Positions 12,891-60,581 of a stretch of DNA of 64,000 nt are shown here, piece after piece (position 1 is the first letter of the stretch; each line of letters starts with the position of its first letter). The notes below the pieces were generated by a model that searched no databases, had not been told where the DNA came from, and saw nothing but the letters and a program-made list of their open reading frames with translations. Source of the stretch: Candidatus Omnitrophota bacterium (lineage in GTDB: Bacteria > Omnitrophota > Gorgyraeia > Gorgyraeales > Gorgyraeaceae); assembly GCA_043821705.1 (NCBI GenBank), contig JBDRCN010000035.1, positions 43,321-107,320 on the forward strand, given 5' to 3'. The position numbers were made by a program, and so were the translations under genes.

Positions 12891-12891
12891 T

Positions 12892-16496: not shown

Positions 16497-16571
16497 ATTT
16501 TAAATTAATTTGATGTGGTATATTATCACATCAGGGAAGGTTATGCAATGATTTTTCTCTATGATTTTTCT

Positions 16572-17633: not shown

Positions 17634-17645
17634 ATTTTGTTAACA

Positions 17646-25112: not shown

Positions 25113-25113
25113 A

Positions 25114-28603: not shown

Positions 28604-28690
28604 GGTCACAAGACACATCTACATGTTAATCAACATGTAGACACAAGTCACATGTGTTATGTGTCGTGTGTCATGTGTCTTATGTTTTGA
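28604..28690. repeat. GTGACATGTG-motif element filling the mraY|murF gap (it overlaps the murF stop codon)
   Basis: ggtcacaagacacat, then hairpin ctacatgtt-aatc-aacatgtag, then acacaagtcacatgtg and tgtgtcgtgtgtcatgtgtcttatg. It shares motifs with 24999-25112 and 2488-2520. Confidence 0.7.
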
Positions 28691-36852: not shown

Positions 36853-36859
36853 TGATTAT

Positions 36860-37154: not shown

Positions 37155-37168
37155 CTTAGCTATGAAAT

Positions 37169-38468: not shown

Positions 38469-38506
38469 GTTCTCTCTCCTTAAGTTAATTTCTAATCTAT
38501 TAATTA

Positions 38507-38623
38507 GGAGCGGGTCCCCTCCTACGCTAAAGCTTCGGAGGGCAGGCTGTCCGTGATTCACCCCGTAAGTGCTCGGCATTTGCCTGCGCGCTTACAGGGA
38601 CCCCAATCGCGGCCACCCGCTAC
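38507..38623. repeat. GC-rich ~100-nt hairpin repeat, copy A (with an extra internal stem-loop)
   Basis: ggagcgggtcc...ctgtccgtgattcaccccgtaagtgctcgg...cctgcgcgcttacagggaccccaatcgcggccacccgctac. It aligns with copies at 58149-58236 and 60453-60543. The inner helix shows compensatory changes (ccccgTaag/cttAcagg versus ccccgCaag/cttGcggg). Confidence 0.8.
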
Positions 38624-38640
38624 TATAGCATATATAGATC

Positions 38641-38887
38641 AATGAACAACTAATAAATTTTATGTCTTAGGGTTTCCCGGGAGTCTATGCGGCGCATCAG
38701 GAACATAGCGGCATCCCGTAATATTCAAGCACGAAGTGTTCAAGGCTTTAGAGCGAGATCGAGCCTAACTAAAGGCGAAAGCTCGATTCGTAGAGCGAGC
38801 TCTAAACCGTAGAACACGGCGCGGTGTTCCAGCGCCGTATAGAACTCCTGGGGAGCTCTAGGACAGCATCTTTATATTTGCATTGCG
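38641..38887. other. GC-rich, hairpin-dense 250-bp intergenic block; possible ncRNA or repeat remnant
   Basis: Multiple stems, for example acggcgc-ggtgttcca-gcgccgt and atcgagc...gctcgat. Composition differs markedly from the AT-rich surroundings. Confidence 0.3.
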
Positions 38888-39592
38888 TTACATAAGTTTA
38901 GAAAAGCTCGCCAGGCATTTCAATGGATCCTTCTCTCTCAGAAATGCCTCTATCTCTTTTCTTATGCGGCCTTTATTCACTTCACCTACATAACCCTTCA
39001 TGACAGCTTCTTTCATCAAACTTTTAGTCTTATCGTCTATCTTAAAATCAAATCTAGTGGCAAACCTTACAGCCCTAAAGATCCTGGTAGGATCATCTTT
39101 AAAACTATCTTTATGTAAGATCTTTATCTTTTTACCCATAAGATCATTATAACCATTGTAAAAATCTACTAAATTGCCAAATGTCTTTTTATTTAGTGCT
39201 ATTGCCATAGCATTTATTGTAAAATCCCTTCTATAAAGATCTTCTCTTATAGATGCAGGCTTTACTTTAGGATAAGAAGCTATCCTTTCATAGGATTCTT
39301 TTCTCGCAGTAGCAAGATCTATGCTTATTTTTTTTAAAGTAATAGTAGCTGTCTTAAAAGCAGGGTGTTTTTTTACGCTTCCCTTTAACTGAGAATTCAG
39401 TTTTTCAGCAAAAGAAATTGCATCACCCTCTATCACGAAATCCAGGTCATGGTTATCTCTTCCAAGAAATATATCTCTTACAGGCCCTCCTACCAGACAA
39501 ACATCTACACCAATAGAATCTCCTGATCTAGATACAGAATTTAAGATATTTAAAAAACTTTTTGAGACTTTTTTACGTAGATCAATCTTCAT
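38888..39592 (-). CDS. tRNA nucleotidyltransferase / poly(A) polymerase head-domain protein (short; possibly truncated CCA enzyme)
   Basis: 234 aa. Nucleotidyltransferase motif GGPVRD...DLDF and RRDFTINAMA of the PolyA_pol head domain. It is roughly half the length of typical CCA-adding enzymes and ends at the GC-rich block. Confidence 0.6.
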   Translation of the reverse strand: MKIDLRKKVSKSFLNILNSVSRSGDSIGVDVCLVGGPVRDIFLGRDNHDLDFVIEGDAISFAEKLNSQLKGSVKKHPAFKTATITLKKISIDLATARKESYERIASYPKVKPASIREDLYRRDFTINAMAIALNKKTFGNLVDFYNGYNDLMGKKIKILHKDSFKDDPTRIFRAVRFATRFDFKIDDKTKSLMKEAVMKGYVGEVNKGRIRKEIEAFLREKDPLKCLASFSKLM

Positions 39593-40712
39593 TTTCTAAT
39601 ATGAAATCAGCTATCCTTTTCGATGCATCCTTATATGAAAAATGTTCCATCCTGGATCTTATGTGCTGCATCTTTTTAGGAGAGACCAACAGCTCCTTTA
39701 AATAAGTTACTATATCTTTTGGGTGTTCTATCTTTACTGCTACCCCATGCTTAGCAAGTAATTTAGCATTCCTTGTCTCTTGGCCAAAGATAGGATTTAC
39801 TATGACCATGGGCAAATTCTTTGAAAGTGCCTCTGAAATAGTAAGGCCCCCTGATTTGCTTATCAAAAGATCGCTCACCTCCATCAACTCATCAATATTG
39901 TCCATAAAACCAAATACCTTTAAGTTGACATCTGTGGCCCCTTTCTTTTTATTTAGTTTCTCGTAAAGAACCTTATTTTTCCCACATATAACAAGCATCT
40001 GCAATTTATATTTTAGAATACCTTCTATCTTATCTAGGGAATCTATAATATCTTCCACTGGCCCTGCGCCAAACCCCCCTCCCATAATAAGTATATTGAA
40101 AAGATCTTTTTCTATCCCTATCTTTTCTATCAACTGGGTGCGATCTTTAGTAATACTGAATTTAGGGTCACAGGGTATGCCTAATACCTTGATCTTTTCT
40201 TTTTTTATACCGCGTCTTAATAGGTCATTTCTTGTCTCTTCCAGGCATACGATAAAACAGTCAGAATATCTCGCCATCCAAAAACTGTGAGAAATAAAAT
40301 CAGTGACCACTGTATAGAGTTTACCTTTATATCTCTTTTTCTTTTTTAAACGTGACACTACTTCAGCAGGCAAAAAATGAGTACAAAGTATGACATCAGG
40401 TTGTGTCTTATCTATAAGATCGATAAACTTTCTTGCAGTAATAGAATGAACTAACCCTCTTACAGGTGAAACTAATCTATCTACTATCTTTATCTCGAAA
40501 AAATAATATAACAAACCCCATAAAAAAGGTATTTTATTTATTAAAAATAGATAAATGTTAGGATATAAAAACTTAAAGACAGGATTTGTATAATCCAAAA
40601 CATCTACTGTCTTTACTTTAGCATCTTTAAAACCTAATAATGAACTTTCTACAGCTAAAGCTGCTTTTTTATGTCCTATCCCAGCATATGCATGAGCGAT
40701 CAATATATTCAT
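39582..40712 (-). CDS. diacylglycerol glycosyltransferase (MGDG-synthase / UgtP-like, GT28)
   Basis: 376 aa. N-terminal MGDG-synthase-like domain (HAYAGIGHKKAALA) and a C-terminal GT28 C-domain (GGGFGAGP...GQE). Confidence 0.65.
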   Translation of the reverse strand: MNILIAHAYAGIGHKKAALAVESSLLGFKDAKVKTVDVLDYTNPVFKFLYPNIYLFLINKIPFLWGLLYYFFEIKIVDRLVSPVRGLVHSITARKFIDLIDKTQPDVILCTHFLPAEVVSRLKKKKRYKGKLYTVVTDFISHSFWMARYSDCFIVCLEETRNDLLRRGIKKEKIKVLGIPCDPKFSITKDRTQLIEKIGIEKDLFNILIMGGGFGAGPVEDIIDSLDKIEGILKYKLQMLVICGKNKVLYEKLNKKKGATDVNLKVFGFMDNIDELMEVSDLLISKSGGLTISEALSKNLPMVIVNPIFGQETRNAKLLAKHGVAVKIEHPKDIVTYLKELLVSPKKMQHIRSRMEHFSYKDASKRIADFILENED

Positions 40713-40859
40713 ATTAAAATAATGTGTATATAAAAGGTGCTACTGCGCTAGACTGTGTAAAGAATATCAATAATCCGAATAGAAGCAGTACTACTACTAT
40801 GGGTATCATCCACCAAAGCTTCCTCTCCCAGAAAAATGTAAATAATTCCTTAATAATAT

Positions 40860-41405
40860 TTAGTCTTTTCCCAATACCCATTCTACAGCCTCCTTAAGAT
40901 CGTTTTTTATAAGATCGGGCTTTGCTTCCCAATCATCAATGCTCTTTGGATCTTCCTTGCCAGTTAAGAGAAGTATGGTCTTGCAACCTGCGTTCTTGCC
41001 TGCTCCTATATCAAGCCTTGAATCTCCTATAAAATATGTATTTTTAAAGTCTATTTCCATACCCTCTGTTGCTTTTTCTATTAATCCTGTATTGGGTTTT
41101 CTACATGAACAATCTTCATCAGGAAGATGGACGCAATAATTCACTGATTCTATTTTGCCTCCATTTTTTTCTATCTCCTTTAACATGTTGTCTGTTATGT
41201 CTTCCAGATCATCGCTTGTATAAAGCCCCTTACTTACCCCTGCTTGATTCGATATTACAAATATGCTGTAGCCTGCTTTATTCAATCTTTTAATAGCCTC
41301 TATGGAACCAGGAAAAAACTCAAATTCCTTCCATGATTTTATATAATCTCCTTTTCCAGGATCTATATTTATCACTCCATCTCTATCCAGGAATATTGCT
41401 TTCAT
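40860..41405 (-). CDS. gmhB: D-glycero-D-manno-heptose 1,7-bisphosphate phosphatase (HAD)
   Basis: HAD motif I FLDRDGVIN, SNQ motif, the Zn-binding CxH..C.C cluster of GmhB (CVHLPDEDCSCRKP) and GDS. I place the start at the ATG at 41405, preceded by AAGGAG. The ORF track starts it at 41426. Confidence 0.75.
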   Translation of the reverse strand: MKAIFLDRDGVINIDPGKGDYIKSWKEFEFFPGSIEAIKRLNKAGYSIFVISNQAGVSKGLYTSDDLEDITDNMLKEIEKNGGKIESVNYCVHLPDEDCSCRKPNTGLIEKATEGMEIDFKNTYFIGDSRLDIGAGKNAGCKTILLLTGKEDPKSIDDWEAKPDLIKNDLKEAVEWVLGKD

Positions 41406-41421
41406 TCCTTCTCCTTTAATA

Positions 41422-41548
41422 AGCACATCACTTAGCGAATCAAGTAAAGCTAAGTGATAAGTGCGAATTAAATCCCGCCCTTTTTAACTGCTACTATAGC
41501 ATAGTTACTAAAAGGGCGGGATAAAACAATAACCTATAAGTTATGTCC
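41422..41548. repeat. composite hairpin repeat, copy 2 (agcacatcacttagc...gtgcgaattaaatcccgccc...aaaagggcgggat...)
   Basis: Same module order as 12743-12890. It lies between the GT2 gene stop (41534) and the gmhB start. Confidence 0.7.
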
Positions 41549-42301
41549 TTGTTTTATCTCCCAATACTTAGCATAACTAAAAAATTGATACAGCGCTCCA
41601 TTTACTGCAATAATAAAACCTATCACGCCATCTTTATACCCTTTTTTCCTAACATATGCCCTGAAAAACCTGTCAAATGCCTTCCAAAGCATCTTTCCTA
41701 CCCCTATTTTTCTTTTCTCGTTAAACCATTTCTCCGCCTCAAGGCTCGTCTGTTTATTCAAGACATAAAAAAGATTGGAAAAATCTGAATGGCCAAAATG
41801 AACAATGTCCTTTGTAAGATGCCCGCATTTGCCGTCAAGAATTATCTTCGGGTGAACATTCGTTTCTTCATATCTAAACTTTGATTTTTTAAAAAGCCTC
41901 AGCTTACCTGCCGGATACCAGCCGCCGTATCTAACCCAGTAATCACCTATATAAGTCCTTCGGGGGATACTGTAGGCACTAAACTCAGTATCTCGTGATA
42001 TAGTATCCTTTATCTCCTTTTTTAACTCTTCTGTAACTATCTCATCCGCATCAAGGCTCAAGACCCATTCATTTTTTGCTTTCTGGCCCATCCAATTCCT
42101 ATGCACGCCTTCCACCTCCATCTTTCTCTTGAATATCTTATCCGTATATTCTCGTGCAACCTCGATCGTCCTGTCAGTACTGTAATCATCCACTATTATA
42201 TGCTCGTCTGCCCAGTCCTGTGTGCTTTTAAGGCAGCCCTCTATCCTGTGTTCTTCATTATACGCGATCGTAACTACTGATAACGGTAATTTCCCTTCCA
42301 T
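41534..42301 (-). CDS. glycosyltransferase family 2
   Basis: 255 aa. GT-A fold with VVTIAYNEE...DD.STD...DADE (DxD). Confidence 0.7.
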   Translation of the reverse strand: MEGKLPLSVVTIAYNEEHRIEGCLKSTQDWADEHIIVDDYSTDRTIEVAREYTDKIFKRKMEVEGVHRNWMGQKAKNEWVLSLDADEIVTEELKKEIKDTISRDTEFSAYSIPRRTYIGDYWVRYGGWYPAGKLRLFKKSKFRYEETNVHPKIILDGKCGHLTKDIVHFGHSDFSNLFYVLNKQTSLEAEKWFNEKRKIGVGKMLWKAFDRFFRAYVRKKGYKDGVIGFIIAVNGALYQFFSYAKYWEIKQGHNL

Positions 42302-42309
42302 AAAACCCC

Positions 42310-43098
42310 CTATATTTTTTTAACTACGGCTAAAAGCTGATCACCTAGTCCTAAAATATTTCCCAATTGTGCAATAGTAGCCATGGTATTTTTGTGAAAA
42401 GATTTTGAAAAAGGGTAATACTGGCTATTTTGGATTATCTCTTTAATTTTAAAACCATTATTAGATAATAAATTTCCAAAACTTCCCCTATCAAAATGCC
42501 ATACATGTTCTCCATTGCCCCATCCATACCATCTGGCCTTATATAGTCTTGCCACCAGGCTATTATGATTTGGCACTCCTATCACTACTATACCTTTTTC
42601 TGCAACAAAATCCTTTATATCTTCTATAAATCCATTCAACTCGACAATATGCTCTAGCACATGGTTCAATATAATAACATCAAAAGATTCTCCAGGGTTC
42701 AAGACATCTTTAAGCATGCCACTTTTTACAGTTAAGCCTTTTGATAAACATATCTCTGATGCTTTTTTATTGAGCTCTATACCTTCTGCTTTGAAACCCA
42801 GCCTTTTAGCCTCTTCAAGCAAAAGTCCAATACTACAGCCAACATCCAAAAGCCTGCCTTCTTTTTTGTGTTTAACTACTAAATTCATAATATCTTCGGA
42901 AAACATCTTAAATTTATCTTCATTTTTCAAATAATGTTCACAATAAAGGCCTTGATCAGTATAATCTGTAAGAAGATAAGGCCTGCTTCTAAATGTCTTA
43001 CAACTATTGCACATGACTATCTCTTTTTTCTGATCATGAAAATCAAGATATTTTTTATAGCTATGAGAACTACATATATTACATCTATCCTGATTCAT
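42310..43098 (-). CDS. class I SAM-dependent methyltransferase with an N-terminal Cys4 zinc ribbon
   Basis: 262 aa. CNICSS...CNSC ribbon, SAM motif I LLDVGCSIGLL and a post-I acidic residue. Confidence 0.7.
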   Translation of the reverse strand: MNQDRCNICSSHSYKKYLDFHDQKKEIVMCNSCKTFRSRPYLLTDYTDQGLYCEHYLKNEDKFKMFSEDIMNLVVKHKKEGRLLDVGCSIGLLLEEAKRLGFKAEGIELNKKASEICLSKGLTVKSGMLKDVLNPGESFDVIILNHVLEHIVELNGFIEDIKDFVAEKGIVVIGVPNHNSLVARLYKARWYGWGNGEHVWHFDRGSFGNLLSNNGFKIKEIIQNSQYYPFSKSFHKNTMATIAQLGNILGLGDQLLAVVKKI

Positions 43099-43868
43099 AT
43101 TTTACCCTTATGATATCTTCCGTAATAGACTCCCCATATAGCAAAGTGCCTCCAGGCATTCAGTATTGAAAAAATAAATCCATGCATGCCATCCCTAAAG
43201 CCCTGTTTTCTTATATATAATTTAAAGAATAATTTCAATGGCCTAAAATAAAGATGGTATTTTATTTCTTTCAGGGTGATCTTGTCCCCTCTATCCTCAT
43301 GCATAACCCTTGCTTCAATGCCAGCGTAGTAAAGCTGCCTATCGATGAATTGTGCTATAGAATCAAATGCAAAATGGTCTAGATCTCCTTTTAAGTCCCC
43401 TATGGAACCATTCACACCCAATGTCTCATGCACATTATGCCCCACATAGCGTGCTTTATCTTTTCTAAATAAGCGTACATGTCTTTCGTGCCAGCCACCG
43501 TACTTCATGAACTTTTTTAAAAAATAATTTTTTCTTCCTATTCTATAAGCTGAGAAATGATTGCTATCTTTCAAAGAGCTCTTTATCTCGTTCCTTAATT
43601 CAGGCGTCACTCTCTCATCTGCATCAAGCTGCAATACCCATTCGCTATTTGAATTATCTATACCGACATTCCGCTGCATATCATGGTTACCATTTGAAGC
43701 GTGAGCTACAAGATTTGCTTTAAATCTGCGGCAGATCTGATGAGTATTATCTACACTCATATCATCCACCACTACTATCTCATCACACCATTTAACGCTC
43801 TCAAGGCACGGCGCGATACGCTTTTCTTCATTCTTTGCTATTATAACTGCTGTTATCTTATGTTTCAT
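43095..43868 (-). CDS. glycosyltransferase family 2
   Basis: 257 aa. ITAVIIAKNEE...VVDD.S.D...LDADE. Confidence 0.7.
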   Translation of the reverse strand: MKHKITAVIIAKNEEKRIAPCLESVKWCDEIVVVDDMSVDNTHQICRRFKANLVAHASNGNHDMQRNVGIDNSNSEWVLQLDADERVTPELRNEIKSSLKDSNHFSAYRIGRKNYFLKKFMKYGGWHERHVRLFRKDKARYVGHNVHETLGVNGSIGDLKGDLDHFAFDSIAQFIDRQLYYAGIEARVMHEDRGDKITLKEIKYHLYFRPLKLFFKLYIRKQGFRDGMHGFIFSILNAWRHFAIWGVYYGRYHKGKI

Positions 43869-43869
43869 A

Positions 43870-44574
43870 CTATATATCCTTAGGGTCTATCTTTAGGCCA
43901 AATCTATAATTAAATATACATTTTAGATAAGCTATCCCGCTTCGAAGTTTTTGTAGTTTTACTTCTCCTATTCTTATCTTGTAAGGTATATCTATTTCTT
44001 TATGTTTAAATTTTCCTAGATTAGTCCTGACAATTATCTCGCAAGGCAAAGAATAATTAGTCTCCCAGTTTATAGATTCTTTTAAGTTCTTTCTTATACA
44101 AAACATCCCTGTTGAAACATCATGTACGTTTATTCCATATAACAACCTCACTAAAAATGCAAATCCCATATTTGCCAATCTATTCATAAAAGGCATCTCT
44201 TTCTTAAGCTCTTTGTTTAACCTATTGCAAGATACTAGATCATATTCCCCAGAAAGTTCTACAAGCTTTGGGATAAAACTCATAGGATAAGTGTTGTCGC
44301 AGTCTGCTGTTATTATAATATCATTTTTCGCTTCTTTTATAGCAGTCCTGAGTGCAATGCCATGGCCTTGAGGTTTTTGGGCCAATACCTTGACTCCCAT
44401 ACGTTTAGCGATATCTACAGTAGAATCAGAACTAGAATCAACTATAACTATCTCTGTCTCATATCCTTTTGTGTATGTTCTGATATCCTCTATAACCTTA
44501 CCAATAGCCTTTTCCTCATTAAATGTCGGCATAACCACAGATACCTTGATATTTTTATCCATTATCTTCTCCAT
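43870..44574 (-). CDS. polyprenol-phosphate glycosyltransferase (Dpm1/ArnC/GtrB-like GT2, soluble form)
   Basis: 234 aa. VSVVMPTFNEE...VIVDSSSDST...ITADCDNTYP, which is the Dpm1-like signature. Confidence 0.65.
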   Translation of the reverse strand: MEKIMDKNIKVSVVMPTFNEEKAIGKVIEDIRTYTKGYETEIVIVDSSSDSTVDIAKRMGVKVLAQKPQGHGIALRTAIKEAKNDIIITADCDNTYPMSFIPKLVELSGEYDLVSCNRLNKELKKEMPFMNRLANMGFAFLVRLLYGINVHDVSTGMFCIRKNLKESINWETNYSLPCEIIVRTNLGKFKHKEIDIPYKIRIGEVKLQKLRSGIAYLKCIFNYRFGLKIDPKDI

Positions 44575-45850
44575 TAAGTTTTCTAGCTAGATCATAGCTA
44601 TGTTCGATTATCTTATCCATATTAAGATATTCAAATTCTGCGAACCTACCGCAGGAATATATCCCCATATTTAATACGTAGTCCAGGGCTTTGTCAATAT
44701 TATTCCTATGACCTAAGTCGTATATGACATAGGCGTATCTAAAGCTCTTGATATCTACAGAAGTAATATCATTTCTTGAGACAAGGCCATTCTTTTCCAG
44801 ATCAGTTATGACCTTTTCTCTTATCTCCTTTTTACTTAAGCTCGCCAAAGGACTATCCTGCCTGTAAGTTATCTCTATCAAAAGGGTAGAAACATTATCT
44901 TCTCCGCAATAATTTTCCCCCAAGAAATTAAGCTTACTTAAACGATGGAATATCATATTCTTATCAGCAAATGTAACTGCAAAATTATCCCCAATATTGT
45001 CCTTCTTGGCCTGAAGCGCTACTATGTATATTGAATTATACTTAAGATCCCCCAGGCTGGCCATAACATCTTTTGGTGCATCTAAAAATCTAAAAAGCTC
45101 ATGGATAGGCATGCAATTTATCAAGGCATCTCCCTTAAAACTACCCTTATCTGTTTCCACCACCCACTTGTCTTTCTTTTTAGATATACTGGTTATCTTG
45201 GTAGAAGTCATAACCTTAGCTTTATCCTTTATACGTTCTCTGTATCCTGAGATCAAACTTTGTATCCCGTTGGACTTCGGATAATAAAAATATAATTGAT
45301 GAAGATATCCCTCTGTCTGTATACCTTTTGAGGACTTTATAATATCTTCTTTGGGAGGTTTTGGTATCCTCTCTACCATCTGCATGTCCATAAAACTGGG
45401 GTCAAACTTCCATATCTTTTCATTATATGGCTCTAGGTATAATCTAGTAATGCCTTCCCCAAATGTCTTTAAAAAAAACTGAAGCATATTCTGTGGCGTG
45501 GAATTCTCATGAGGATTATTCAAAAATTCCTTAACACAATAATCCCTGTCAGTATCATCTAATGCTGCTAGATCATTTTCAAAAGGATACTTTACAAATC
45601 TATCTTTATGAAAGATCTTATTTGACCTCTTTATCTTATTTGTCTCTGTCAATAAAGTAAGTTCATTAAGCATATCTTTATTTTTTGAGAATAATATATG
45701 CGGCCCAATATCATAATAGATGCCATTTAACTCAAAACTTCTACACAACCCTCCTAAGACATTTTCTTTTTCTAGCACAAGGGTCCTTTTATTTAAAAAA
45801 TGCGCTAGGCTGAGTCCTGCCAGCCCTCCACCTAAGATTATATATTCCAT
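44555..45850 (-). CDS. FAD-dependent oxidoreductase, UDP-galactopyranose-mutase-like
   Basis: 431 aa. N-terminal dinucleotide motif ILGGGLAGLSLA, IGPHILF, and C-terminal CGRFAEFEYLNMD resembling the Glf GRxxxYxYxxMD motif. It is longer than typical Glf. Confidence 0.45.
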   Translation of the reverse strand: MEYIILGGGLAGLSLAHFLNKRTLVLEKENVLGGLCRSFELNGIYYDIGPHILFSKNKDMLNELTLLTETNKIKRSNKIFHKDRFVKYPFENDLAALDDTDRDYCVKEFLNNPHENSTPQNMLQFFLKTFGEGITRLYLEPYNEKIWKFDPSFMDMQMVERIPKPPKEDIIKSSKGIQTEGYLHQLYFYYPKSNGIQSLISGYRERIKDKAKVMTSTKITSISKKKDKWVVETDKGSFKGDALINCMPIHELFRFLDAPKDVMASLGDLKYNSIYIVALQAKKDNIGDNFAVTFADKNMIFHRLSKLNFLGENYCGEDNVSTLLIEITYRQDSPLASLSKKEIREKVITDLEKNGLVSRNDITSVDIKSFRYAYVIYDLGHRNNIDKALDYVLNMGIYSCGRFAEFEYLNMDKIIEHSYDLARKLNGEDNG

Positions 45851-45864
45851 AAAGTATCTCTCTC

Positions 45865-47271
45865 TTAAAATCTTCTTATGTATAGATCCCTATACTCAGC
45901 TGATCTTATATAATTATCGCGAATGACCTTGTTCTCTATATCTTCAATATAGTAATCAGAAATGATCTTTGGCTTTTTAAGGCCTATCAGGCTATAGATA
46001 TCATAACTATATGGTGTGATCTTACGATATGCTGAAAGCGCTCCTGTGTTCGGCCTAAGTGCATACCAAAAGAAATCCAGATCTTTTCTAAATAGGTTAA
46101 ATCTGGCATCTCCGTCATATACAAAATCTTTTGGATCTGTATTCTCCAGAACATAGCTAACCTTTTTCAGTTGGTCTTTATTAGTAAGTTTAAAAGCATA
46201 TTTGATAGTCCTACTTAAACACGTAACCAATAGAAGTATCAATATGAAACACATGATCTTCCTCTTGTTGCCAAAAAACCTGTTTATGGATAAGCTCGAT
46301 ATAATCGCTATAAAAGGCATGGCCATCATATAATATTGCTGAAAAGAACTTTTTGTCAAAAGAAGGGTCAAAAGCAAACCTATAGAGAACAATCCTATAC
46401 TCTTATGTTTATAGTTTCTCAAATGGAACGCCATGCCTGTTATATAAAACATCCAAAGGATCGTATTTTTCCTAAGACTTCTCACTAGTTCTGCAAAAGG
46501 AGTAAAATCACTCAAGCCCTTTATATGTGCATTAAATATCCAGTTGAATATCATGTATTCACTTACTGAGCCTTTTATGATCAGGTATACCAGATAAGGA
46601 CATAGTCCACAGAAAAATATAAAAAGATATAAGATGCATTCTTTTAGGCCTATTTCTTTCTTGAACAGCTTAAAGATAAACAAGCAACCCAGTACCATAA
46701 TAAAAAATACTGCTCTTTGTAGAAATAAAAACGATACTGACAAGGCTAAGGCGCTAAAGATCAAAAAAGAGACCTTGTTTTTATCAAAATAATAGTATAA
46801 AAATAAAACTGACAACATGCTAAACAATACCTGAGGCACATCTGGCCTTATCTCTATAGCCTTTCCAGTAAATATAATAGTGGTTAAAAGAAGTGCCGTG
46901 CTTATAAGCGCTATATCCCTGTCCGCTACTTTCTTAGCCAATAAATAGGAAATAAAAACAATAGATAAAAAAAGTATGAATATAAAAATTCTTGCACAAT
47001 ATAAAACAATCAGCCTTTCCCCGAAAAAAGTGATAAAAGGAACAAGGCAATAATATAAAAGTGGATTGTGGTGTTGAAAGAAATCTTTATAGATCACCTC
47101 CCCCTTGGATATCTTCCAGGAACTATGTATGACCTCAAATTCATCATAGTCAAACTGCCTGTTCAAAGAAGTAATAAATAAAAGGGGAAGCATCACCCCT
47201 ATTATGAGGTAAGTAATAATATTTGTATCTAGCACATTGAACTGTCTTTTCATATTAATCCAGGAACCCAT
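45865..47271 (-). CDS. GT-C fold polyprenol-P-sugar-dependent glycosyltransferase (PMT/ArnT-like, GT39/83-like)
   Basis: 468 aa. At least 10 predicted TM helices. An acidic DE motif (FDYDEFEVIH) lies in the first extracytoplasmic loop after TM1, and there is a C-terminal soluble domain. Confidence 0.55.
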   Translation of the reverse strand: MGSWINMKRQFNVLDTNIITYLIIGVMLPLLFITSLNRQFDYDEFEVIHSSWKISKGEVIYKDFFQHHNPLLYYCLVPFITFFGERLIVLYCARIFIFILFLSIVFISYLLAKKVADRDIALISTALLLTTIIFTGKAIEIRPDVPQVLFSMLSVLFLYYYFDKNKVSFLIFSALALSVSFLFLQRAVFFIMVLGCLFIFKLFKKEIGLKECILYLFIFFCGLCPYLVYLIIKGSVSEYMIFNWIFNAHIKGLSDFTPFAELVRSLRKNTILWMFYITGMAFHLRNYKHKSIGLFSIGLLLTLLLTKSSFQQYYMMAMPFIAIISSLSINRFFGNKRKIMCFILILLLVTCLSRTIKYAFKLTNKDQLKKVSYVLENTDPKDFVYDGDARFNLFRKDLDFFWYALRPNTGALSAYRKITPYSYDIYSLIGLKKPKIISDYYIEDIENKVIRDNYIRSAEYRDLYIRRF

Positions 47272-49003: not shown

Positions 49004-49008
49004 CTACG

Positions 49009-50627: not shown

Positions 50628-50643
50628 ACCTTGCCTCCTAATT

Positions 50644-51213: not shown

Positions 51214-51215
51214 AC

Positions 51216-52882: not shown

Positions 52883-52895
52883 TTTCAGTTTCTTT

Positions 52896-53939
52896 CTACT
52901 TTTCCAAGAGCTTTAGTTCAGCTTTATGTATCTTCTTAAACATTTCGAATCTGCCTAATAGTGATTTGCTGTTTACATTTATAGAATCGTACTTTTTCTT
53001 CTTTGTAAGTACCTTGAACATCAAAAACACATTAAAAAAAGAGTCCTCATAAAAGATCTTTCTGATATTCCCGTGATTCAGGTCTTTTATCTCTTCTATG
53101 TCGCTCTTTTTCATCATAACATCTATCCAGTTGCCAGCATCAGCAAATGAATACATATTCTCTTTTATCATCTGAAACCCTTCATTCTTGGCATCCTTTA
53201 TCACATAAAGCATCCTTTTCGGCTTTCTATACAACTTATAGAATTTTTCCTTGCTTTCATTAAAAAGTTTTTCAAAGTGTTCCTTCTTTTCTCTGCCTTT
53301 GAAAGAAGCGTGTTCTTCATGGTACACATAGGATCCCAAGGCCATCACTGATTTATATCCTTTTTGTTTGGCCCTCATTGAATATTCAGTGTCTTCAAAA
53401 TATCCTGGCGAGAACCTCTCGTCCCAGACCCCTATCTCATTTATAAGTTTACGCTTTACTAGATAGCAAAACCCTACTGCTGTACCTATCTCGACGAACT
53501 TGCCGGAATTTTCCCTCACGAGCCTTCCAGTAAAATCCTCCAAGGACTCCATCTTCTTTTTTCTTAGCCCAAAAGTATTACTCGAAGGATTTACTATACC
53601 TATATCATCTGAAGCCTCAGCTACCTTTACCATCTCGACTAACCAGTCTTTGCACACAATAGTATCATTATCCAATATACACACATACTCTGCATCTCCG
53701 TAAGTCATGCCCTGGACACCCGCAGTAGTATTCCCCAAGTTTTCCTTATTGACTATTAATTTTATTCTATCAGGGTTATCGCTGGCTGTTTTCTCAAGAT
53801 ATTTTCTGGTATCATCTTTGCTCGCATTATCTATCAATAAAACAGTGTAGGGGAATATAGTGTTGGATAAGATATGATCCACGCATCTTTTCGTAAGTTG
53901 TTTTTTATTCCAGACAGGTATTACTATATCACACTTCAT
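52896..53939 (-). CDS. glycosyltransferase family 2
   Basis: 347 aa. CDIVIPVWN...LLIDNASKDDT...LDNDT (DxD). Confidence 0.7.
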   Translation of the reverse strand: MKCDIVIPVWNKKQLTKRCVDHILSNTIFPYTVLLIDNASKDDTRKYLEKTASDNPDRIKLIVNKENLGNTTAGVQGMTYGDAEYVCILDNDTIVCKDWLVEMVKVAEASDDIGIVNPSSNTFGLRKKKMESLEDFTGRLVRENSGKFVEIGTAVGFCYLVKRKLINEIGVWDERFSPGYFEDTEYSMRAKQKGYKSVMALGSYVYHEEHASFKGREKKEHFEKLFNESKEKFYKLYRKPKRMLYVIKDAKNEGFQMIKENMYSFADAGNWIDVMMKKSDIEEIKDLNHGNIRKIFYEDSFFNVFLMFKVLTKKKKYDSINVNSKSLLGRFEMFKKIHKAELKLLEK

Positions 53940-53940
53940 G

Positions 53941-55035
53941 TCACCATCCGCTCTTTATGGTCTTTATAACTTTTTCTACATCATTATCTGTAAGGTTATA
54001 GTGTAGTGGGATAGAGACATATTCTGGTTCTACTTCATTCATGACCTCTAATTCCTCTAGTCTCTTACCCCCAAAGATAGGATATATATCGCATCTTACA
54101 TGTACCATATGAGATTCAATATCATTGGCTAAAAGTTTTTTCATAAAACCTTTCCTATCCTTGACCCTCATAGTAAACAGCCAATTACCACTTACCCTAT
54201 CATCCTTTTTAGAAAGTAATGTAAGGCCTTCGACACCTTTTAACCCATCTCTATATCTATCAGATATCTCTCTACGCTTTTTTAAAACTTTCTTCAGATC
54301 GTCGAGCTGATCTACGATCATGCTGGCAGCAATATCATTCATGTGATATTTATAACCTACTTCTTTTATCTGGTATTTCCAATATATATCTCCACGGAAC
54401 TCCCTGTCTATGCCATACCACCTTAAAAGTTTAGCTCTTTTATATTGATCCTGTTTTAAGACTGTCAAAAGGCCTCCATCCCCGGAAGTGATCTGTTTTA
54501 TGGCCTGGAAAGAAAAACAAGTAAAATCTCCAATGCTACCGATATTTTTCCCTTTATAAGTCGCCCCAAAAGCATGAGCAGCATCCTCTATCACCGGAAC
54601 ATTATGTTCCTTGCCTATCTTCAGTATCTCGTCCATATCGCATGGATAACCTGCCCAATGGACAACAAGTATGGCCTTTGTCCTGTCCGTTATCTTCTTT
54701 TTTATGCTTTCCGGGTCTATGTTCAATGTATCTCTCTGGATATCCGCAAACACTGTTTTAGCGCCAGTGTAAAGTATGGGTATATTAGTAGCGGAACATG
54801 TCATAGGAGTGGTCACGACTTCGTTATCACTTTTTACTCCTGACATGATCAAAGCAAGATGTATGGCAGAAGTACATGAATTCACAGTGACTGGATAAGC
54901 AAACCCCAGCATCTTCTTAAACTTTCTTTCAGCTTCTTCTACTTTAGGCCCTTGCCCGATCCATCTGGTCTTTAAAACTTCTTTTAGATTATCATATACC
55001 TTCTCTGACATATACGGCCAAAACATATTGATCAT
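53941..55035 (-). CDS. DegT/DnrJ/EryC1/StrS-family sugar aminotransferase (PLP)
   Basis: 364 aa. Fold-type I aminotransferase with the PLP-lysine region FSFQAIKQI. Confidence 0.85.
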   Translation of the reverse strand: MINMFWPYMSEKVYDNLKEVLKTRWIGQGPKVEEAERKFKKMLGFAYPVTVNSCTSAIHLALIMSGVKSDNEVVTTPMTCSATNIPILYTGAKTVFADIQRDTLNIDPESIKKKITDRTKAILVVHWAGYPCDMDEILKIGKEHNVPVIEDAAHAFGATYKGKNIGSIGDFTCFSFQAIKQITSGDGGLLTVLKQDQYKRAKLLRWYGIDREFRGDIYWKYQIKEVGYKYHMNDIAASMIVDQLDDLKKVLKKRREISDRYRDGLKGVEGLTLLSKKDDRVSGNWLFTMRVKDRKGFMKKLLANDIESHMVHVRCDIYPIFGGKRLEELEVMNEVEPEYVSIPLHYNLTDNDVEKVIKTIKSGW

Positions 55036-55913
55036 AGTTCCATCTCCTCTCTTAATAATTTTAAACCTTCATTACAAGTATGCACAGGAACATCCAGCTC
55101 TTTCTTTATTTTTTCTACACACAGGCCTGCCTTTTTAGGCCTTTTTGCTTTAAGCTTTAGGTCCTTTAGGCTGACCTTTTCTATCAAATCCTTATTTAAG
55201 TTGAATATATTTGCTATTTTCTCTATGAATTCCACTCTATTTATAAAATCAGTCCCTGCTACATGATAGGTCCCATTTTTTCTAGACTCAATAAGCTTAA
55301 TAATAGCTAAAGAAAGATCTCCCACATAAGTAGGCGTACAATAAAAATCCTCTGCTGCATATACTTTCTTATTGCTGCGCATATTATTTATGATCTTTAA
55401 TGAAAAATTCACTCCATTTTTTTCTTTCCCAAAAAGTTGAGCTGTTCTAATGATCAAATAATCGTTAAGCCTCTTTTTTATCTCGTTTTCGACTTTTAGT
55501 TTAGTCATACCATAGATATTAAGAGGAGATGGTATGTCCTCTTCTCTATAAGGCCCTTTTTTTCCATCAAATACATAATCAGTTGAAAGAAATACTATTT
55601 TTTTATTCCGTTCCTTTATCTTTTTTATTAATTCAATTGATCCTTCCACATTTATATCTTCTGCTAGATCTTTCTCTGATTCACATAAGTCTACATTAGT
55701 AACACCGCCTGACAATATCGCTATATCTGGATCAAAAGAATCTATGGTTTTTTCTATACCTTCCCTGTCCCTTAGGTCAAGATATGTCATGCCTTCCTCT
55801 GGCGCAGGCTCACAGTATGTGCCTAGCGCTTTCCATCCTTGATTTTTTAGATCTATATATAACCTGCTTCCTAGAACACCTGTTGCTCCAACTAGCAAAA
55901 CTTTCATAAGCAT
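55032..55913 (-). CDS. SDR-family sugar-nucleotide reductase (RmlD / dTDP-4-dehydrorhamnose reductase-like)
   Basis: 293 aa. [12 protein letters not shown] Rossmann motif, YGMTK (YxxxK), and RmlD-like length. Confidence 0.7.
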
Positions 55914-57007
55914 TCCCCTAGACTGTCTACTATATATTTGATCTCTTCTTCTTTGAGCTCAGGGTACATCGGAAGGCTAAGGACTTCTTCGCAACACTTT
56001 TCTGATATTGGGAAGTCTCCCTTTTTATGGCCTAGCTCTTTATACGCTTCCTGCAGATGGACAGGTATTGGGTAATGGATTATAGTAGGTATGTCCTTGC
56101 TAGTCAAATACTCTATTACCTTTGATCTATTTTTTATCCTCACAACATATTGGTGATATATATGCTTTGCATATTCTGCTTCATATGGCAATACTATATC
56201 AATACCTCTTTTTTTAAATAAATCAGTGTATATAGATGCATTCTTTCTTCTTTTTTCATTCCATTCGTCTAGATATCTTAATTTTACCCTAAGTACTGCA
56301 GCTTGTATTGTATCCAACCTGGAGTTATACCCTTTTATAATATTTTCATATCTGTCTTTTCTTCCATAATCACGTAGAAGTAATAGTCTTTTTTTCATCT
56401 CTTCTGACCTTGTAAGTGCCATGCCTCCATCACCAAAAGCCCCAAGGTTCTTTGTAGGATAAAACGAAAAACAGCCAATATCCCCTATGCTTCCTGCTTT
56501 TTTATTTTTATAGAGCGACCCATGTGCTTGAGCAGCGTCTTCTATGACCTTTAAGTTGTGCTCTCTAGCGATCTCCATGATAGGGTCCATGTCAGCAGCA
56601 TGGCCATAAAGATGTACTGGCAGTATTGCCTTTGTCTTTTTAGTGATAGCTTTTTTTATCTTAACTGGGTCTATGTTATATATCTTCTTGTCTATGTCTA
56701 CAAACACGGGCTTAGCCCCTGTCATTGATATAGCTAATGCTGTCGCGATGTATGTATAACTCATAGTGATAACTTCATCGCCTTTCCCTATCCCGCAAGC
56801 AAGGCATGCTAAAAATAATGCATCTGTCCCAGAATTTAGTCCTATGCCATAATCTGTATTACAGTATCTTGCAAACTCTTCTTCAAAAAGAATCACATCT
56901 TTACCCAGAATAAATCCACACGAATTTAAAACATTCTCTAGAGGGGCCTTTAACTCATCTTTAATAGATTCATATTGCCTCTTGAGTGTAAAAAAATCTA
57001 TCTTCAT
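55904..57007 (-). CDS. DegT/DnrJ/EryC1/StrS-family sugar aminotransferase (PLP)
   Basis: 367 aa. PLP-lysine FSFYPTKNL. It is a paralog of 53941..55035. Confidence 0.85.
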
Positions 57008-57016
57008 CTCTTCCCC

Positions 57017-58093
57017 CTATTCGATCATATGTAAAACTTTATCAAAAACATCGTCTACGCTCAATGTTTCCAAACATCTTTTATGGCTGCATTCTGGGAC
57101 CTTGAACCTCTTATAACAAGGCCTGCAATCCACTTCTTTAGTAACACTGATATTAGCTAGGCCAGAAGGATAAGCACCATATACTGATTCATCAACTGGC
57201 CCGAATATTGATACAGTCTTAATACCTTGGCTAGAAGCAATATGTAGCGGCCCTCCTTCACTACAGATAAATAATTTTAATCTCTTGCAAAGCTCTGCCA
57301 TCTGCCTTACTGTAGTCCTAGGAGCGATCAGCGTTTTTCTCTCCATGCTATTTTTAATATCTTCTACAAGCCCTTCTTCCCCTGGCCCCCAGATAAAAAC
57401 AACTTTTGCATTAAATTTCTCTATGAGTTTATCAGCTAATAGACTAAATTTATCAGCTGGCCATCTTCTCATACCTCCTTTTTCCTTGCCGAAACTCACT
57501 CCTCCGCCTGGAGCTATGCCTATCAAAACATCTTCATGTCCTATACCTGAAGTCTTTAAAAAACTATCTATATATTCTTTGTCTTCCTTTAAAGTGATAA
57601 GAGTTGTTTTAATGCCTTTAAATCTAGAAAGGTCTATCCTTGAGCATATAAGATCCAGATAATATTCAGCTACTGGCTTGTCATTAAATCCAAAAAATGG
57701 AGTCTTCCCTGTTAAGAATCTCCCTCTTCCTTTATAGTTAAATCCTATTCTTTCTTTAATGCCTATAAGCCAAGAGAGAAATGCATATTCCTTACCAAGA
57801 GAAAGATCTACCACTATGTCGATATTCCTTTTTTTTATCTTCATCCAGAAATCAATTATTTTTCTTAAGGAACCTACCTTATCCCTTTTCCAAAGTGCCC
57901 TATACTCACCCCTGTCAAATACAAATACCTCATCTATGTCAGTATTTGTCTCTAAGATCTCTTTAGTCCTTATATTACATATATAAGCTATATAGCTCTT
58001 TGAGTCAGCCTTTTTCAATACTGAGACTAAAGGCGTAGAAAACAGAACATCCCCAATACCAAATGGATTGATTATAAGTATCCTTTTACCCAT
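57017..58093 (-). CDS. glycosyltransferase family 9 (heptosyltransferase, WaaC/WaaF-like)
   Basis: 358 aa. KRILIINPFGIGDVLFSTP at the N-terminus and the GT9 C-terminal domain (GGPLHIASSQG). Confidence 0.8.
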   Translation of the reverse strand: MGKRILIINPFGIGDVLFSTPLVSVLKKADSKSYIAYICNIRTKEILETNTDIDEVFVFDRGEYRALWKRDKVGSLRKIIDFWMKIKKRNIDIVVDLSLGKEYAFLSWLIGIKERIGFNYKGRGRFLTGKTPFFGFNDKPVAEYYLDLICSRIDLSRFKGIKTTLITLKEDKEYIDSFLKTSGIGHEDVLIGIAPGGGVSFGKEKGGMRRWPADKFSLLADKLIEKFNAKVVFIWGPGEEGLVEDIKNSMERKTLIAPRTTVRQMAELCKRLKLFICSEGGPLHIASSQGIKTVSIFGPVDESVYGAYPSGLANISVTKEVDCRPCYKRFKVPECSHKRCLETLSVDDVFDKVLHMIE

Positions 58094-58148
58094 AAGAATC
58101 AGGATATTATACCATAATATACCTTAATCTATCTATGATTTTATTATG

Positions 58149-58236
58149 ACAGCGGGTCCTGTCCGAGATTCACCCCACAAGTGCTCGCCAAACGCTGCGC
58201 GCTTGCGGGGAACCCCAATCTCGGCCACCCGTTTCG
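58149..58236. repeat. GC-rich ~100-nt hairpin repeat, copy B
   Basis: gacagcgggtcctgtccgagattcaccccacaagtgctcgcc...ctgcgcgcttgcggggaaccccaatctcggccacccg. It is inverted relative to copy C at 60453-60543, which lies on the other side of the 58609..60384 gene. Confidence 0.8.
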
Positions 58237-58430
58237 CTATCATAATATACTAGAATTACTGTGTTATAAGCTAAAGAAAAGCTGTACGCGAATTTGAAAA
58301 TTTAGGCTTTTATGAAGCGTTTTTCGGGCTTGAAGAACTTGCCACCACAAAATACCATACCGGACATACCGGACCCGGGGTCCGATATGGTTAAGCCAAG
58401 CCATCCACTAATAAATAGATCTAAGTCTTA

Positions 58431-58587
58431 CTGCCAACCTGGTAGGCATGAGAAAAGCCTTGCTTTTTTGAGCGGGCACGGTCCCCGCCTATTTTAGCAC
58501 GATGCGGGGGAGCGAAAAAAAGCATGGAGTGAAAGCTGCCACGCTGGGGCAGCTAAACGTCTTTTCGAAGGCCTGCCAGGTTGGCAG
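58431..58587. mobile_element. MITE-like element (~157 bp) with 17-bp TIRs (1 mismatch)
   Basis: ctgccaacctggtaggc (58431-47) versus the reverse complement of gcctgccaggttggcag (58571-87). The interior gagcgggcacggt and ctgccacgctggggcag are reverse complements of modules in the 36860-37154 element. 58391-58413 shares gtaagccaagccatccRctaata with 4605-4627. Confidence 0.55.
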
Positions 58588-58608
58588 ATGGATGTAGGGA
58601 AAGTTTAA

Positions 58609-60384
58609 TTAATATTTCTGGAATATGTTGTAGATATTGACGAAACGTTCTATGTTAGGGTCTTCTATCTCCTCATAGTCATCCATATATGCTAAAAATT
58701 CTTTCTGGAGGGTCTTAGAATCTTTCCCGAGTATCTCAAAGAGCCACTCTACATCCTCTGATTCTTCGGTCTTGACCTCTGCTAATTTATTCTGGTACTT
58801 CACGAATTCATCTTTATAGTTATCCATCAAGAAATTCACAAATGCCCAGCTTTGAGCATACATATCGAGCATTATACCTGAATAGACACCTGGAAAACTC
58901 CCAAGCTTATAGTTTGTCAAAAATTCTATAGGATAAGCTGGTCCTTTTCTCAGCATCTCTTGAAATGTATAAAGAAGCATGTCATCTTGCTCTCCTAATG
59001 CAGATGTCTGGCAATAAGTAGCAGTACCTTCTGCAAGCCATGAATTAGCAGCTCTCATATCTATAGGAACATCCTGATTTGACTGCGTCATAAGAGTCTT
59101 AAAAAGTCTTGCTTTCTTCTTAGGGTCTTTTGTCTCAAGAAACTCTTTCTTTCTTCTTACCAAGTCGCTCGTTTCTCCTTTGAATTTAGAGACAATCACG
59201 CTTTGGATCCCCCAATTATGGAACACCTCATGTGCAAATTCATGCCTTAATACACTCATGGTCGAATCCCTGAACATATTTCTATAATAACTGTATGCTT
59301 CCCAGAACTTGTCCTTTATCTTTTTTGCCATGCCTTCTATAAAAATATGATATCTTTTATCGACCATACCCTGTACATCCTCGACGATATCATCTATGGT
59401 TCTCCCAGTCTCCCCTACCCAGGCCTCGAACATAAATTCTGAAAATCTATCTCCTAAAATGTTATACATATATAAAACTCTCTGCTGCGGATCAAAATAT
59501 CCCATAACAGCCCATCCTGGCACACCATCTGAAACAGCGTATTCAATAAAATCACTATAGTCATCAAATATGACCACGAAATTCTGCATCATAGGCTCTC
59601 TGTCTTTAAAGACATCGAAAAACTCAAGATATATATCTGTATATGTCCTTCTCAAAGTACCCTTACATTCCTTTACCCAAGTAGCATATGAATCAGTGAC
59701 TATAGTAAAGTTCCCTTCCGTATAAAATTCCATTTTTGAGAATAATTCCTCTAGATTCCTTCTTACCTTTCTCGTCTCTTCATTATCCACTGGCTTAAAT
59801 ATAATATTTTCTAATTGATCTCTTTCTATCTCTTGTTCAAAACGCGCTTCTTCTTCGCCGCCATAAAGTAAGGTCAACCTATCATCAGTAACATTGATTA
59901 TCTTCGCATCCAATATATTTGTATTTTTTAATCTTATTACAACACTATGCTCATAAGGCCAGTGCTCTGATATCTCTTTATTCGATAGTGTATCTTTTTC
60001 TCTAAGCGCTTCCTCAGGGTCTCCAATACGTTCTACCAGCCCAGCAAATACTATAGTCTCTTCATCTTTATACATGATCCTATATTCATCTTCTGTCTTA
60101 CTGATAAGCTCACCTATTATCATACTTCCATCCTTAAAATGTATAGCGATCTTTTCAAGCTTGTTATCTTTATATCTCTTCTCAAGTATGGCATCGCGTA
60201 TATTATCTTTTATTGAGCTTATAAAACCAGTGACCTTACCTAATGCACTCCAACTTCTAACATAAGGTAATCCTCTCTTCTCATCCTGCCTGAATTCTAT
60301 CAACCTATGGACGCTGCCGCCTATCACCAACAAAGAGATGACTACCACCAATATCTTTTTGACCATCTTTCCCTCCTTATGCAC
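58609..60384 (-). CDS. membrane-anchored HEXXH protein (putative zinc metallopeptidase-like, gluzincin-type)
   Basis: 591 aa. N-terminal signal anchor, HEFAHEVFH (HExxH) with a downstream Glu (AEGTATY), and an acidic C-terminus. It is flanked by inverted copies of the GC-rich hairpin repeat. Confidence 0.45.
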   Translation of the reverse strand: MHKEGKMVKKILVVVISLLVIGGSVHRLIEFRQDEKRGLPYVRSWSALGKVTGFISSIKDNIRDAILEKRYKDNKLEKIAIHFKDGSMIIGELISKTEDEYRIMYKDEETIVFAGLVERIGDPEEALREKDTLSNKEISEHWPYEHSVVIRLKNTNILDAKIINVTDDRLTLLYGGEEEARFEQEIERDQLENIIFKPVDNEETRKVRRNLEELFSKMEFYTEGNFTIVTDSYATWVKECKGTLRRTYTDIYLEFFDVFKDREPMMQNFVVIFDDYSDFIEYAVSDGVPGWAVMGYFDPQQRVLYMYNILGDRFSEFMFEAWVGETGRTIDDIVEDVQGMVDKRYHIFIEGMAKKIKDKFWEAYSYYRNMFRDSTMSVLRHEFAHEVFHNWGIQSVIVSKFKGETSDLVRRKKEFLETKDPKKKARLFKTLMTQSNQDVPIDMRAANSWLAEGTATYCQTSALGEQDDMLLYTFQEMLRKGPAYPIEFLTNYKLGSFPGVYSGIMLDMYAQSWAFVNFLMDNYKDEFVKYQNKLAEVKTEESEDVEWLFEILGKDSKTLQKEFLAYMDDYEEIEDPNIERFVNIYNIFQKY

Positions 60385-60444
60385 TAAGTATAATTATATA
60401 GCGCCCAAGCCCCAAAAACAACCTCAAACAACTCTCTGATAAAG

Positions 60445-60552
60445 TTTCAATAGCAGCGGGTGGTCGGCGATTGGGGACCCCGCAAGCGCGCAAGGCAAAG
60501 CCTGAGCACTTGCGGGGTGAATCGGCGGACAGGACCCGCTGCTATTGAAACT
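60445..60552. repeat. GC-rich ~100-nt hairpin repeat, copy C (near-perfect long palindrome)
   Basis: tttcaatagcagcgggtgg...cccgcaagcgcgcaaggcaaagcctgagcacttgcgggg...caggacccgctgctattgaaa. The outer arms extend the inverted repeat to ~108 nt. Confidence 0.8.
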
Positions 60553-60581
60553 CTAATACTTATCTGCTATACTATTTATCT

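Follow-up and report, generated by a model that had tools for sequence, protein, structure and literature searches.

A low-copy family of GC-rich palindromic hairpins in Candidatus Omnitrophota, probably mobile and similar to MITE, REPIN and ERIC elements

What is a GC-rich hairpin of about 90 bases that stands, in an AT-rich genome, just ahead of genes that have nothing in common? This question is raised by a 64-kb stretch of a contig from a Candidatus Omnitrophota metagenome-assembled genome (MAG), hereafter the window, a term that always denotes the whole stretch. The window has a GC content of 37.5% and carries nearly all of its genes on the minus strand; it contains three copies of the element (A, B and C), whose cores are 64–69% GC against about 37% for the genome. 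A fourth copy (D) lies in a second Omnitrophota MAG, and only these four copies are known. [quoted passage not shown]

Copies, fold and distribution of the element

The three copies in the window were recovered both by a core 20-mer scan and by a covariance model, at about the positions proposed in an earlier note on this DNA. With up to 3 mismatches allowed, the 20-mer matched only at 38555, 58167 and 60504, where 0 matches are expected by chance. Since the model, run with filters off on the 64 kb, had itself been derived from the four known copies, the high scores of A–C follow from its construction; the informative part is the lack of any other match above 12 bits in the 64 kb. Pairwise identity among A–C is 80–84%. 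The element is written here on its sense strand, defined as the strand matching the downstream gene, and the features on which the argument rests are the following.

38508..38622, minus strand: copy A, sense form GCGGGTGG...GGACAG...GACCCGC, 39 nt upstream of the true rbfA start and on the same strand as rbfA; the upstream gene is 265 nt away
38517..38546, minus strand: 30-nt insertion present in copy A only, in the 3' internal loop, with its own hairpin CCCTCC...GGAGGG
38112..38468, minus strand: rbfA, with its likely true ATG at 38468 and the ribosome-binding site (RBS) AAGGAGAG upstream
58150..58234, minus strand: copy B, 56 nt upstream of the start (58093) of a GT9 heptosyltransferase gene and 374 nt downstream of the stop of the HEXXH gene
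58142..58247, minus strand: copy B with its AT-rich flanks, which prolong the palindrome (TATTATGA / TCATAATA)
60454..60541, plus strand: copy C, in a divergent intergenic region, 40 nt upstream of the start (60582) of a GAF-GGDEF gene and, on the other side, 87 nt upstream of the HEXXH start (60366)
60443..60552, plus strand: copy C with its 11-bp perfect inverted flanks (AGTTTCAATAG / CTATTGAAACT), which lengthen the stem (shuffle p ~0.0015)
58609..60366, minus strand: HEXXH/DUF1570 gene, 585 aa, a resident gene between B and C and not cargo

A degenerate further copy had been suggested at 4460-4500, which neither method of comparison supports: the covariance model with filters off gave no match at E≤10 and blastn none at E≤0.01. 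The site has merely a loose likeness to the element over about 25 nt, and what the surrounding intergenic region contains is a GC-rich hairpin of a different kind, together with part of another repeat family. By contrast, the suspicion that copy A distorts gene calling was confirmed. The mechanical open reading frame (ORF) of rbfA, 38112-38579, begins inside copy A and overlaps it with its first 37 codons; the resulting N-terminal extension is spurious, since the Pfam RBFA domain begins only at residue 41 of this ORF and the RBS precedes the ATG at 38468.

As the earlier note had proposed, each copy forms a single long, imperfect hairpin whose stability greatly exceeds that of shuffled controls (RNA folding −54 to −75 kcal/mol, z −2.9 to −12; DNA folding of copy C, z about −6). 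All copies share a three-helix hairpin with conserved internal loops, in which the conserved core measures about 86 nt and the core length ranges from 85 to 115 nt. The outermost helix, P1 (CAGCGGGU / ACCCGCUG on the sense strand), contains the terminal inverted repeats CAGCGGGT / ACCCGCTG and is separated from P2 by an internal loop in which a 5' GG faces a 3' ACAGG; the extra 30-nt hairpin of copy A sits in this ACAGG loop. P2 (approximately CCGGCGAUU / AAUCG.CGG, with one mismatch position) is followed by a second internal loop, 5' GGGGN opposite 3' UG, and then by P3 (CCCCGCAAGCGCGC / GAGCACUUGCGGGG), which has conserved C.A and G.A positions. The apical loop of 11–18 nt varies in sequence and length and forms a small stem. 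The purine-rich internal-loop nucleotides are identical in all four copies, differences being confined to the stems and the apical loop. No long ORF conserved across the copies was found, and six-frame translations of the element returned nothing at E≤10 from a set of 5.8 billion proteins.

In the alignment of the four copies, 94.5% of the pairs are standard, and double changes occur in 2 of 28 pairs, both from C-G to U-A, one in P1 of copy D and the other in P3 of copy A. Several further pairs, changed on one side, are G.U intermediates when read on the sense strand (29-64 in B and D, 28-65 in A, 11-79 in C), whereas the conserved C.A at 34-59 corresponds to G.U on the opposite strand. Covariation in the inner helix had been claimed before; the compensatory change in A, from C-G to T-A, was upheld, but the supposed identity of B and C was not, the inner helix of B being CACAAG/CTTGCG on the strand used in that claim (an A.C mismatch there, G.U on the other strand). 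It had further been argued that the structure is under selection as RNA or single-stranded DNA, which is not established: 29 of 500 column shuffles equalled the observed covariation, so that the covariation is present but non-significant with four sequences. Nor does it separate selection on RNA from selection on DNA. Wobble pairs and folding energies are ambiguous as to strand, with sense-strand G.U pairs in A–D, a C.A at 34-59 that favours the opposite strand, and mixed energies.

Outside the window, a scan of GTDB for 18 specified core bases, covering 185,579 species genomes, returned one true copy, D, in the Omnitrophota MAG JBDRJN010000002.1 (L002/L012), together with two chance matches. 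Copy D is 78–82% identical to A–C, much as these are among themselves, and the 21 kb around it (L012) have no detectable protein-coding similarity to the window. JGI metagenome contigs, scanned with a different 20-base pattern, yielded no member and three chance matches, and three scans of viral contigs (0, 0 and 33 stretches) gave no convincing member; the best viral stretch (L033, 21.7 bits, E 0.05) was rejected on reading. Plasmid and phage collections held no match to the element, and blastn (word size 11) against 5,426 E. coli genomes found none either, including any likeness to enterobacterial ERIC, repetitive extragenic palindromic (REP) or bacterial interspersed mosaic element (BIME) sequences. 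In Rfam, no match overlapped any copy even at E≤10, the sole match in the window at the gathering threshold being a tRNA elsewhere. The family is rare in public data and uncatalogued, in keeping with the novelty presumed earlier, and as far as could be seen it is restricted to a narrow group of Candidatus Omnitrophota genomes.

Evidence for insertion and likeness to known elements

Copy D is the one copy whose site can be compared with relatives. It lies in L012 inside an operon in the order Rrf2, Fer4 protein, small Zn-ribbon protein and Hcp, beginning 7 nt past the Fer4 stop and ending 14 nt before the start of the small Zn-ribbon gene. Two related Omnitrophota contigs with this operon (L013 and L050) have zero spacer and no element at the junction, where the Fer4 gene runs into the small gene with an ATGA overlap, and in L014/L015 neither the small Zn-ribbon gene nor the element is present. 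L012 and L013 are not close strains, their coding DNA being merely 66–78% identical; the compact junction, found in two lineages, would most simply be ancestral. In addition, a perfect direct repeat of 10 nt, AAAGGAGACC, stands on either side of copy D (shuffle p ~0.005); the left copy of this repeat encodes the Fer4 C-terminus, while the right copy abuts D and acts as the Shine-Dalgarno sequence of the small gene. Because the relatives' site is empty and the direct repeat is present, copy D is, on this comparative sequence evidence, an insertion. Judging by the bases beside it, the duplication may once have been longer, taking in the whole stop/start junction, and have decayed since.

Further signs come from the other copies. 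The dispersal of copies over unrelated loci in two MAGs, with an identity between the genomes (78–82%) that matches the one inside a single genome (80–84%), counts for a mobile element, as does the internal insertion of copy A, which parallels the long and short forms in which Correia elements occur (PMC2229807). Around copy B there is likewise a direct repeat of 10 nt, GTATATTATG, at a distance of 6 nt on the 5' side and 27 nt on the 3' side (p ~0.01). If the ends are taken as G(C/T)AGCGGGT...ACCCGCT(G/C)C, TA is found on both sides of A–C, which fits the TA termini of many bacterial MITEs (PMC2229807) and also counts for mobility, although the TA may instead belong to a conserved TAG. The flanks of copy B prolong the palindrome by 8–11 bp; they are AT-rich and unrelated to the flanks of copy C. 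The palindromic flanks of B and C may have arisen because the element inserted into AT-rich palindromes with TA at their centre, or because the palindrome grew outwards by template switching. No empty AT-rich palindromes resembling these flanks were found elsewhere in the window.

The hairpin settles in intergenic DNA near gene starts, and at the comparable site of copy D it is an insertion with an apparent target duplication of at least 10 nt, which restores the downstream Shine-Dalgarno sequence. Copies would stem from an enzyme whose gene lies elsewhere in the genome, a transposase or a single-stranded DNA enzyme like the REP-associated tyrosine transposases (RAYTs), which would read the hairpin in its folded form along with the conserved loops. 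Both the compensatory changes and the high GC content would then be maintained since the folded form is what is recognised. Where copies are transcribed, as in the hcp operon and probably upstream of rbfA, the very stable RNA hairpin, at −54 to −72 kcal/mol, could form a passive barrier to processing or exonucleases between cistrons, a role known for REP and ERIC that would involve no specific sensor.

Among known systems, REPINs and the REP sequences from which they take their name are mobilised by RAYT transposases (Bertels & Rainey 2011, PMC3116915). The element resembles them in being extragenic, GC-rich and dispersed, in forming a single long hairpin of about 100 nt, in having two conserved arms around a less conserved spacer with compensatory changes between the arms, and in having no coding content and a presumed mobilisation in trans. 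In REPINs, changes that compensate one another between the two sides of the hairpin are common (PMC3116915) and therefore constitute no argument for novelty. There are also differences. The arms of the element alone are no significant palindromes (DNA folding z −0.85 and −0.65), each forming just a 5-bp GCGGG/CCCGC stem around an 18-nt loop, no better than shuffles, and no solo arms occur in the window. The GTAG/CTAC motif is not conserved (GTAG in A only, ATAG in B and C, none in D), and the copy number is seemingly very low in the second genome. No RAYT gene was found in L012, just as none lies in the 64-kb window.

A classical REP/RAYT system is present in another Omnitrophota genome, that of Gorgyraea atricola (L007), which was counted for a REPIN-like reading. 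Herein, a Y1_Tnp gene at 12523-13008 with HUH and Y motifs is flanked by GTAGGCCAGGTTTAAACCTGGCCTAC repeats, 26-nt GTAG...CTAC palindromes of which six copies occur within 22 kb in nearby intergenic regions (209-237, 9860-9888, 12476-12504, 13023-13083 and 14647-14675). The element has no sequence similarity to these Gorgyraea REP repeats.

The second group for comparison comprises the bacterial MITEs, including ERIC/IRU and Correia/NEMIS (reviewed in Delihas 2008, PMC2229807). With MITEs of the Correia/ERIC/RUP type the element shares terminal inverted repeats, a length below 200 bp and the absence of coding capacity. With ERIC and Correia elements it shares the form of an imperfect palindrome of 100–150 nt in intergenic, often transcribed DNA that yields long stem-loop transcripts, filled and empty sites between relatives, an internal insert distinguishing long from short forms (copy A), possible TA termini (A–C) and an orientation-dependent placement beside gene starts. 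It differs from them in that it is GC-rich (64–69%) rather than AT-rich, that its apparent target duplication, where seen, is at least 10 nt long and not flush with the core instead of a simple TA, and that its internal loops are as strictly conserved as its termini. ERIC, REP and BIME sequences are further set apart by the lack of any E. coli sequence similarity. GC-rich palindromic mobile elements in AT-rich genomes are also represented by the Rickettsia palindromic elements, which often insert in frame into genes, and by the yeast mitochondrial GC clusters. Both differ from the present family in lineage and sequence, and copies A–D are all intergenic. Integron attC sites were rejected as well: the ends CAGCGGGT/ACCCGCTG are not R''/R' (RYYYAAC / GTTRRRY), the copies stand in inverted orientation at a great distance from each other and not in a same-orientation cassette array, and the annotated ORFs include no integrase. 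In its working, the element is most like REPINs, ERIC and Correia-type MITEs, which when transcribed influence the transcripts beside them (PMC3116915, PMC2229807), and it is no demonstrable member of any of them.

Several observations weigh against a mobile element. Four copies are a very small sample for copy number, orientation bias or insertion rules. No transposase, RAYT or other mobilising gene was found in the window by Pfam annotation or by tblastn with the RAYT of L007, only housekeeping genes. In all of the L002/L012 genome there is a single occurrence of the exact 18-base motif, unlike a proliferating element. No direct repeat flanks A or C, and those of D and B are not flush with the core on both sides, being 15 nt off in D and 27 nt in B. 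Most bacterial MITEs are AT-rich, whereas this element is GC-rich. Furthermore, all four copies share their orientation with the downstream gene at no more than 56 nt from its start codon, and the combination of invariant loop nucleotides, variable stems and equal identity between and within genomes is also the pattern of a functional RNA.

Position, promoters and competing explanations

The placement of the copies is the point on which the competing explanations turn. All four lie 14–56 nt upstream of a start codon in the same orientation as that gene: A before rbfA, B before the heptosyltransferase gene, C before the GAF-GGDEF gene and D before the Zn-ribbon/hcp genes. The orientation bias is non-significant, with three informative orientations. 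Two promoter-like sites with 10/12 matches plus TG, the two best in the region, stand between an element and its gene.

60545..60573, plus strand: promoter-like site after copy C, TTGAAA-17-TATACT with TG, the best of the region; 4 nt past C, ending 9 nt before the GGDEF ATG and no part of the conserved element
58106..58135, minus strand: promoter-like site after copy B, TAGATA-18-TATAAT with TG, between B and the heptosyltransferase ATG

The starts of the heptosyltransferase (58093) and GAF-GGDEF (60582) genes have no obvious Shine-Dalgarno sequence, and the strong promoter-like −10 boxes stop 9–13 nt before these ATGs, which suggests that the two mRNAs are leaderless or nearly so. Since the promoter-like sites lie between element and gene, without an RBS, B and C are probably upstream of their genes' promoters and outside those mRNAs. 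Copies A and D, in contrast, are directly followed by an RBS and, judging from this arrangement, must be transcribed with the neighbouring genes. Such a mixture speaks more for an inserted element than for a dedicated regulatory leader, and the position of B and C tells against a leader-RNA role common to all copies. An intrinsic terminator was rejected, no copy being flagged on either strand and the flanks having no T-run or U-tract.

A cis-acting structured RNA, that is, a protein- or ligand-binding leader or an intercistronic element with the internal loops as binding site, is the strongest of the alternatives and is nonetheless unlikely. It would account for the sense orientation of all four copies close to start codons, despite two intergenic regions as long as 419 and 515 nt, and like a riboswitch or leader RNA the element has conserved loops and covarying stems. 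The loops are invariant while stem changes are compensated, the apical loop varies in length, one copy has an optional extra hairpin, several single changes yield sense-strand G.U pairs, and identity between genomes equals that within a genome. However, the downstream genes (rbfA, heptosyltransferase, GAF-GGDEF and the Zn-ribbon/hcp operon) are unrelated, the best promoter-like sites lie downstream of B and C, and the hcp operon of relatives has overlapping genes and no element. The C.A at 34-59, being G.U on the opposite strand, deprives the wobble counts of a strand preference, the covariation is non-significant (29/500), and Rfam holds no match.

A related idea, that of a clade-specific functional RNA module copied 5' of unrelated genes, appears slightly less probable still. 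The module would be a binding site for a regulator or nuclease, a ribozyme or a sensor, and together with it the invariant loops and the conserved C.A and G.A positions would, with the same low probability, represent an active or binding surface. If true, an uncultivated lineage would have yielded a new class of RNA, but this reading is not the one favoured by the present evidence.

A role at the DNA level is doubtful to a somewhat greater degree. Here the element, as duplex or cruciform, would be bound by gyrase, a dimeric regulator or a nucleoid protein and serve, in the manner of BIME/REP clusters, as a platform or insulator between transcription units; it could have been domesticated from a mobile repeat. 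B and C lie directly upstream of the −35 regions of strong promoter-like sites, C stands between two divergent genes, and the dyad symmetry is near-perfect, with flanks that prolong the palindrome. Copy D contradicts this view, lying within an operon, 7 nt past a stop and 14 nt before a start, where no promoter fits. Moreover, no candidate binding protein is known, and the conserved asymmetric internal loops are needless for a dimer that binds duplex DNA.

Multi-copy small RNA genes with promoters of their own are very improbable. A 9/12 promoter-like site (ATAACA-17-TATGAT) ends 5 nt before B, and weak −10-like hexamers precede A and D, but AT-rich flanks give such hexamers by chance and scans were no richer than shuffles. 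Copy C has no upstream promoter-like site, and no terminator-like U-tract follows any copy on either strand.

Finally, the composite mobile unit or recombination cassette put forward in the earlier note, with B and C as the inverted ends of a transposon carrying the HEXXH gene, can for practical purposes be set aside. The arrangement itself is as described, B and C being inverted, 2.2 kb apart, around a single protein gene; each copy, however, faces its own downstream gene (B to the left, towards the glycan cluster and heptosyltransferase; C to the right, towards GGDEF), and this orientation rule, which holds for A and D too, accounts for the inversion. The elements are non-coding, and the contexts in which the HEXXH gene occurs vary across the phylum: for the HEXXH/DUF1570 protein over 100 homologues, nearly all of Omnitrophota type, were seen at 32–58% identity, and three fetched neighbourhoods (L007, L008-L010 and L011) differ from one another and from the window and are without the element. 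No transposase gene and no direct repeat outside the B–C unit was found, and the interval also contains about 370 nt of unrelated repeat material. The protein itself matches ABH848_03840 at NCBI with 100% identity, an entry that belongs to a 123-kb contig of a Candidatus Omnitrophota MAG.

Neighbouring repeats and significance of the family

The genomic setting comprises mreBC, the dcw cell-wall cluster from mraZ to ftsA, ribF-truB-nrnA-rbfA, a long glycan/heptose cluster, and the HEXXH/DUF1570, GAF-GGDEF and smc genes. Other repeats were observed in it. A second family, common to both MAGs at 79% identity, lies at 12732-12871 and 41411-41550 (minus strand) of the window and at 4794-4854 of L012. 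It consists of an AT-rich palindrome (ATCCCGCCCCTTT...AAAGGGGCGGGAT), then a conserved hairpin GCAC-TAATCACTTAGC...GCTAAGTGAT-GTGC, then AAAGGAGG, and in the window it stands upstream of a dksA-like gene and a HAD (gmhB-like) gene. Its second hairpin has 4 compensatory pairs relative to the L012 copy, and Rfam holds nothing that matches the family, which may be a leader motif or a further mobile repeat.

A third, GC-rich family occurs at 36853-37171, 58431-58587 and in part of 4565-4630 of the window. Its terminal inverted repeats (36853-36893 / 37132-37171) are 85% complementary, and its inner blocks ACCGTGCCCGCTC and GCTGCCCCAGCGTGGCAGC are shared; one copy occupies the nrnA-truB spacer and another adjoins copy B. 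In the 419-nt spacer upstream of copy A, 38668-38720 and 38787-38870 are two more GC-rich, hairpin-prone islands, which with 58359-58409 show that the long intergenic regions of this genome are a patchwork of structured, GC-rich segments. Upstream of copy B, the spacer also includes 35 nt (58289-58323) that are 86% identical to an intergenic segment of the other MAG (L002 225-257) and may be another small shared repeat. Short repeats of the TGTGACATGTGAC type are found at 2485-2517, 25083-25115 and 28648-28680, apparently at gene boundaries in the murA and dcw regions. An exact 42-nt duplication (9968-10009 / 10176-10217), 208 nt apart, repeats the 3' half of tRNA-Pro(GGG) (10177-10255, minus strand) and resembles the trace that an element leaves on integrating into a tRNA gene. 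In L013, a GDP-mannose dehydratase/epimerase gene (16092-17885) is split by an intein with a LAGLIDADG domain, according to precomputed Pfam matches.

For the biology of the group, the element represents a new repeat family in a phylum known solely from metagenomes, none such having been described in the literature searched. The hcp-operon case indicates that insertion into an overlapping stop/start junction can be tolerable when the RBS is duplicated. In addition, the family explains the mis-called rbfA start and some of the long GC-rich intergenic regions, and is thereby useful for the annotation of MAGs.

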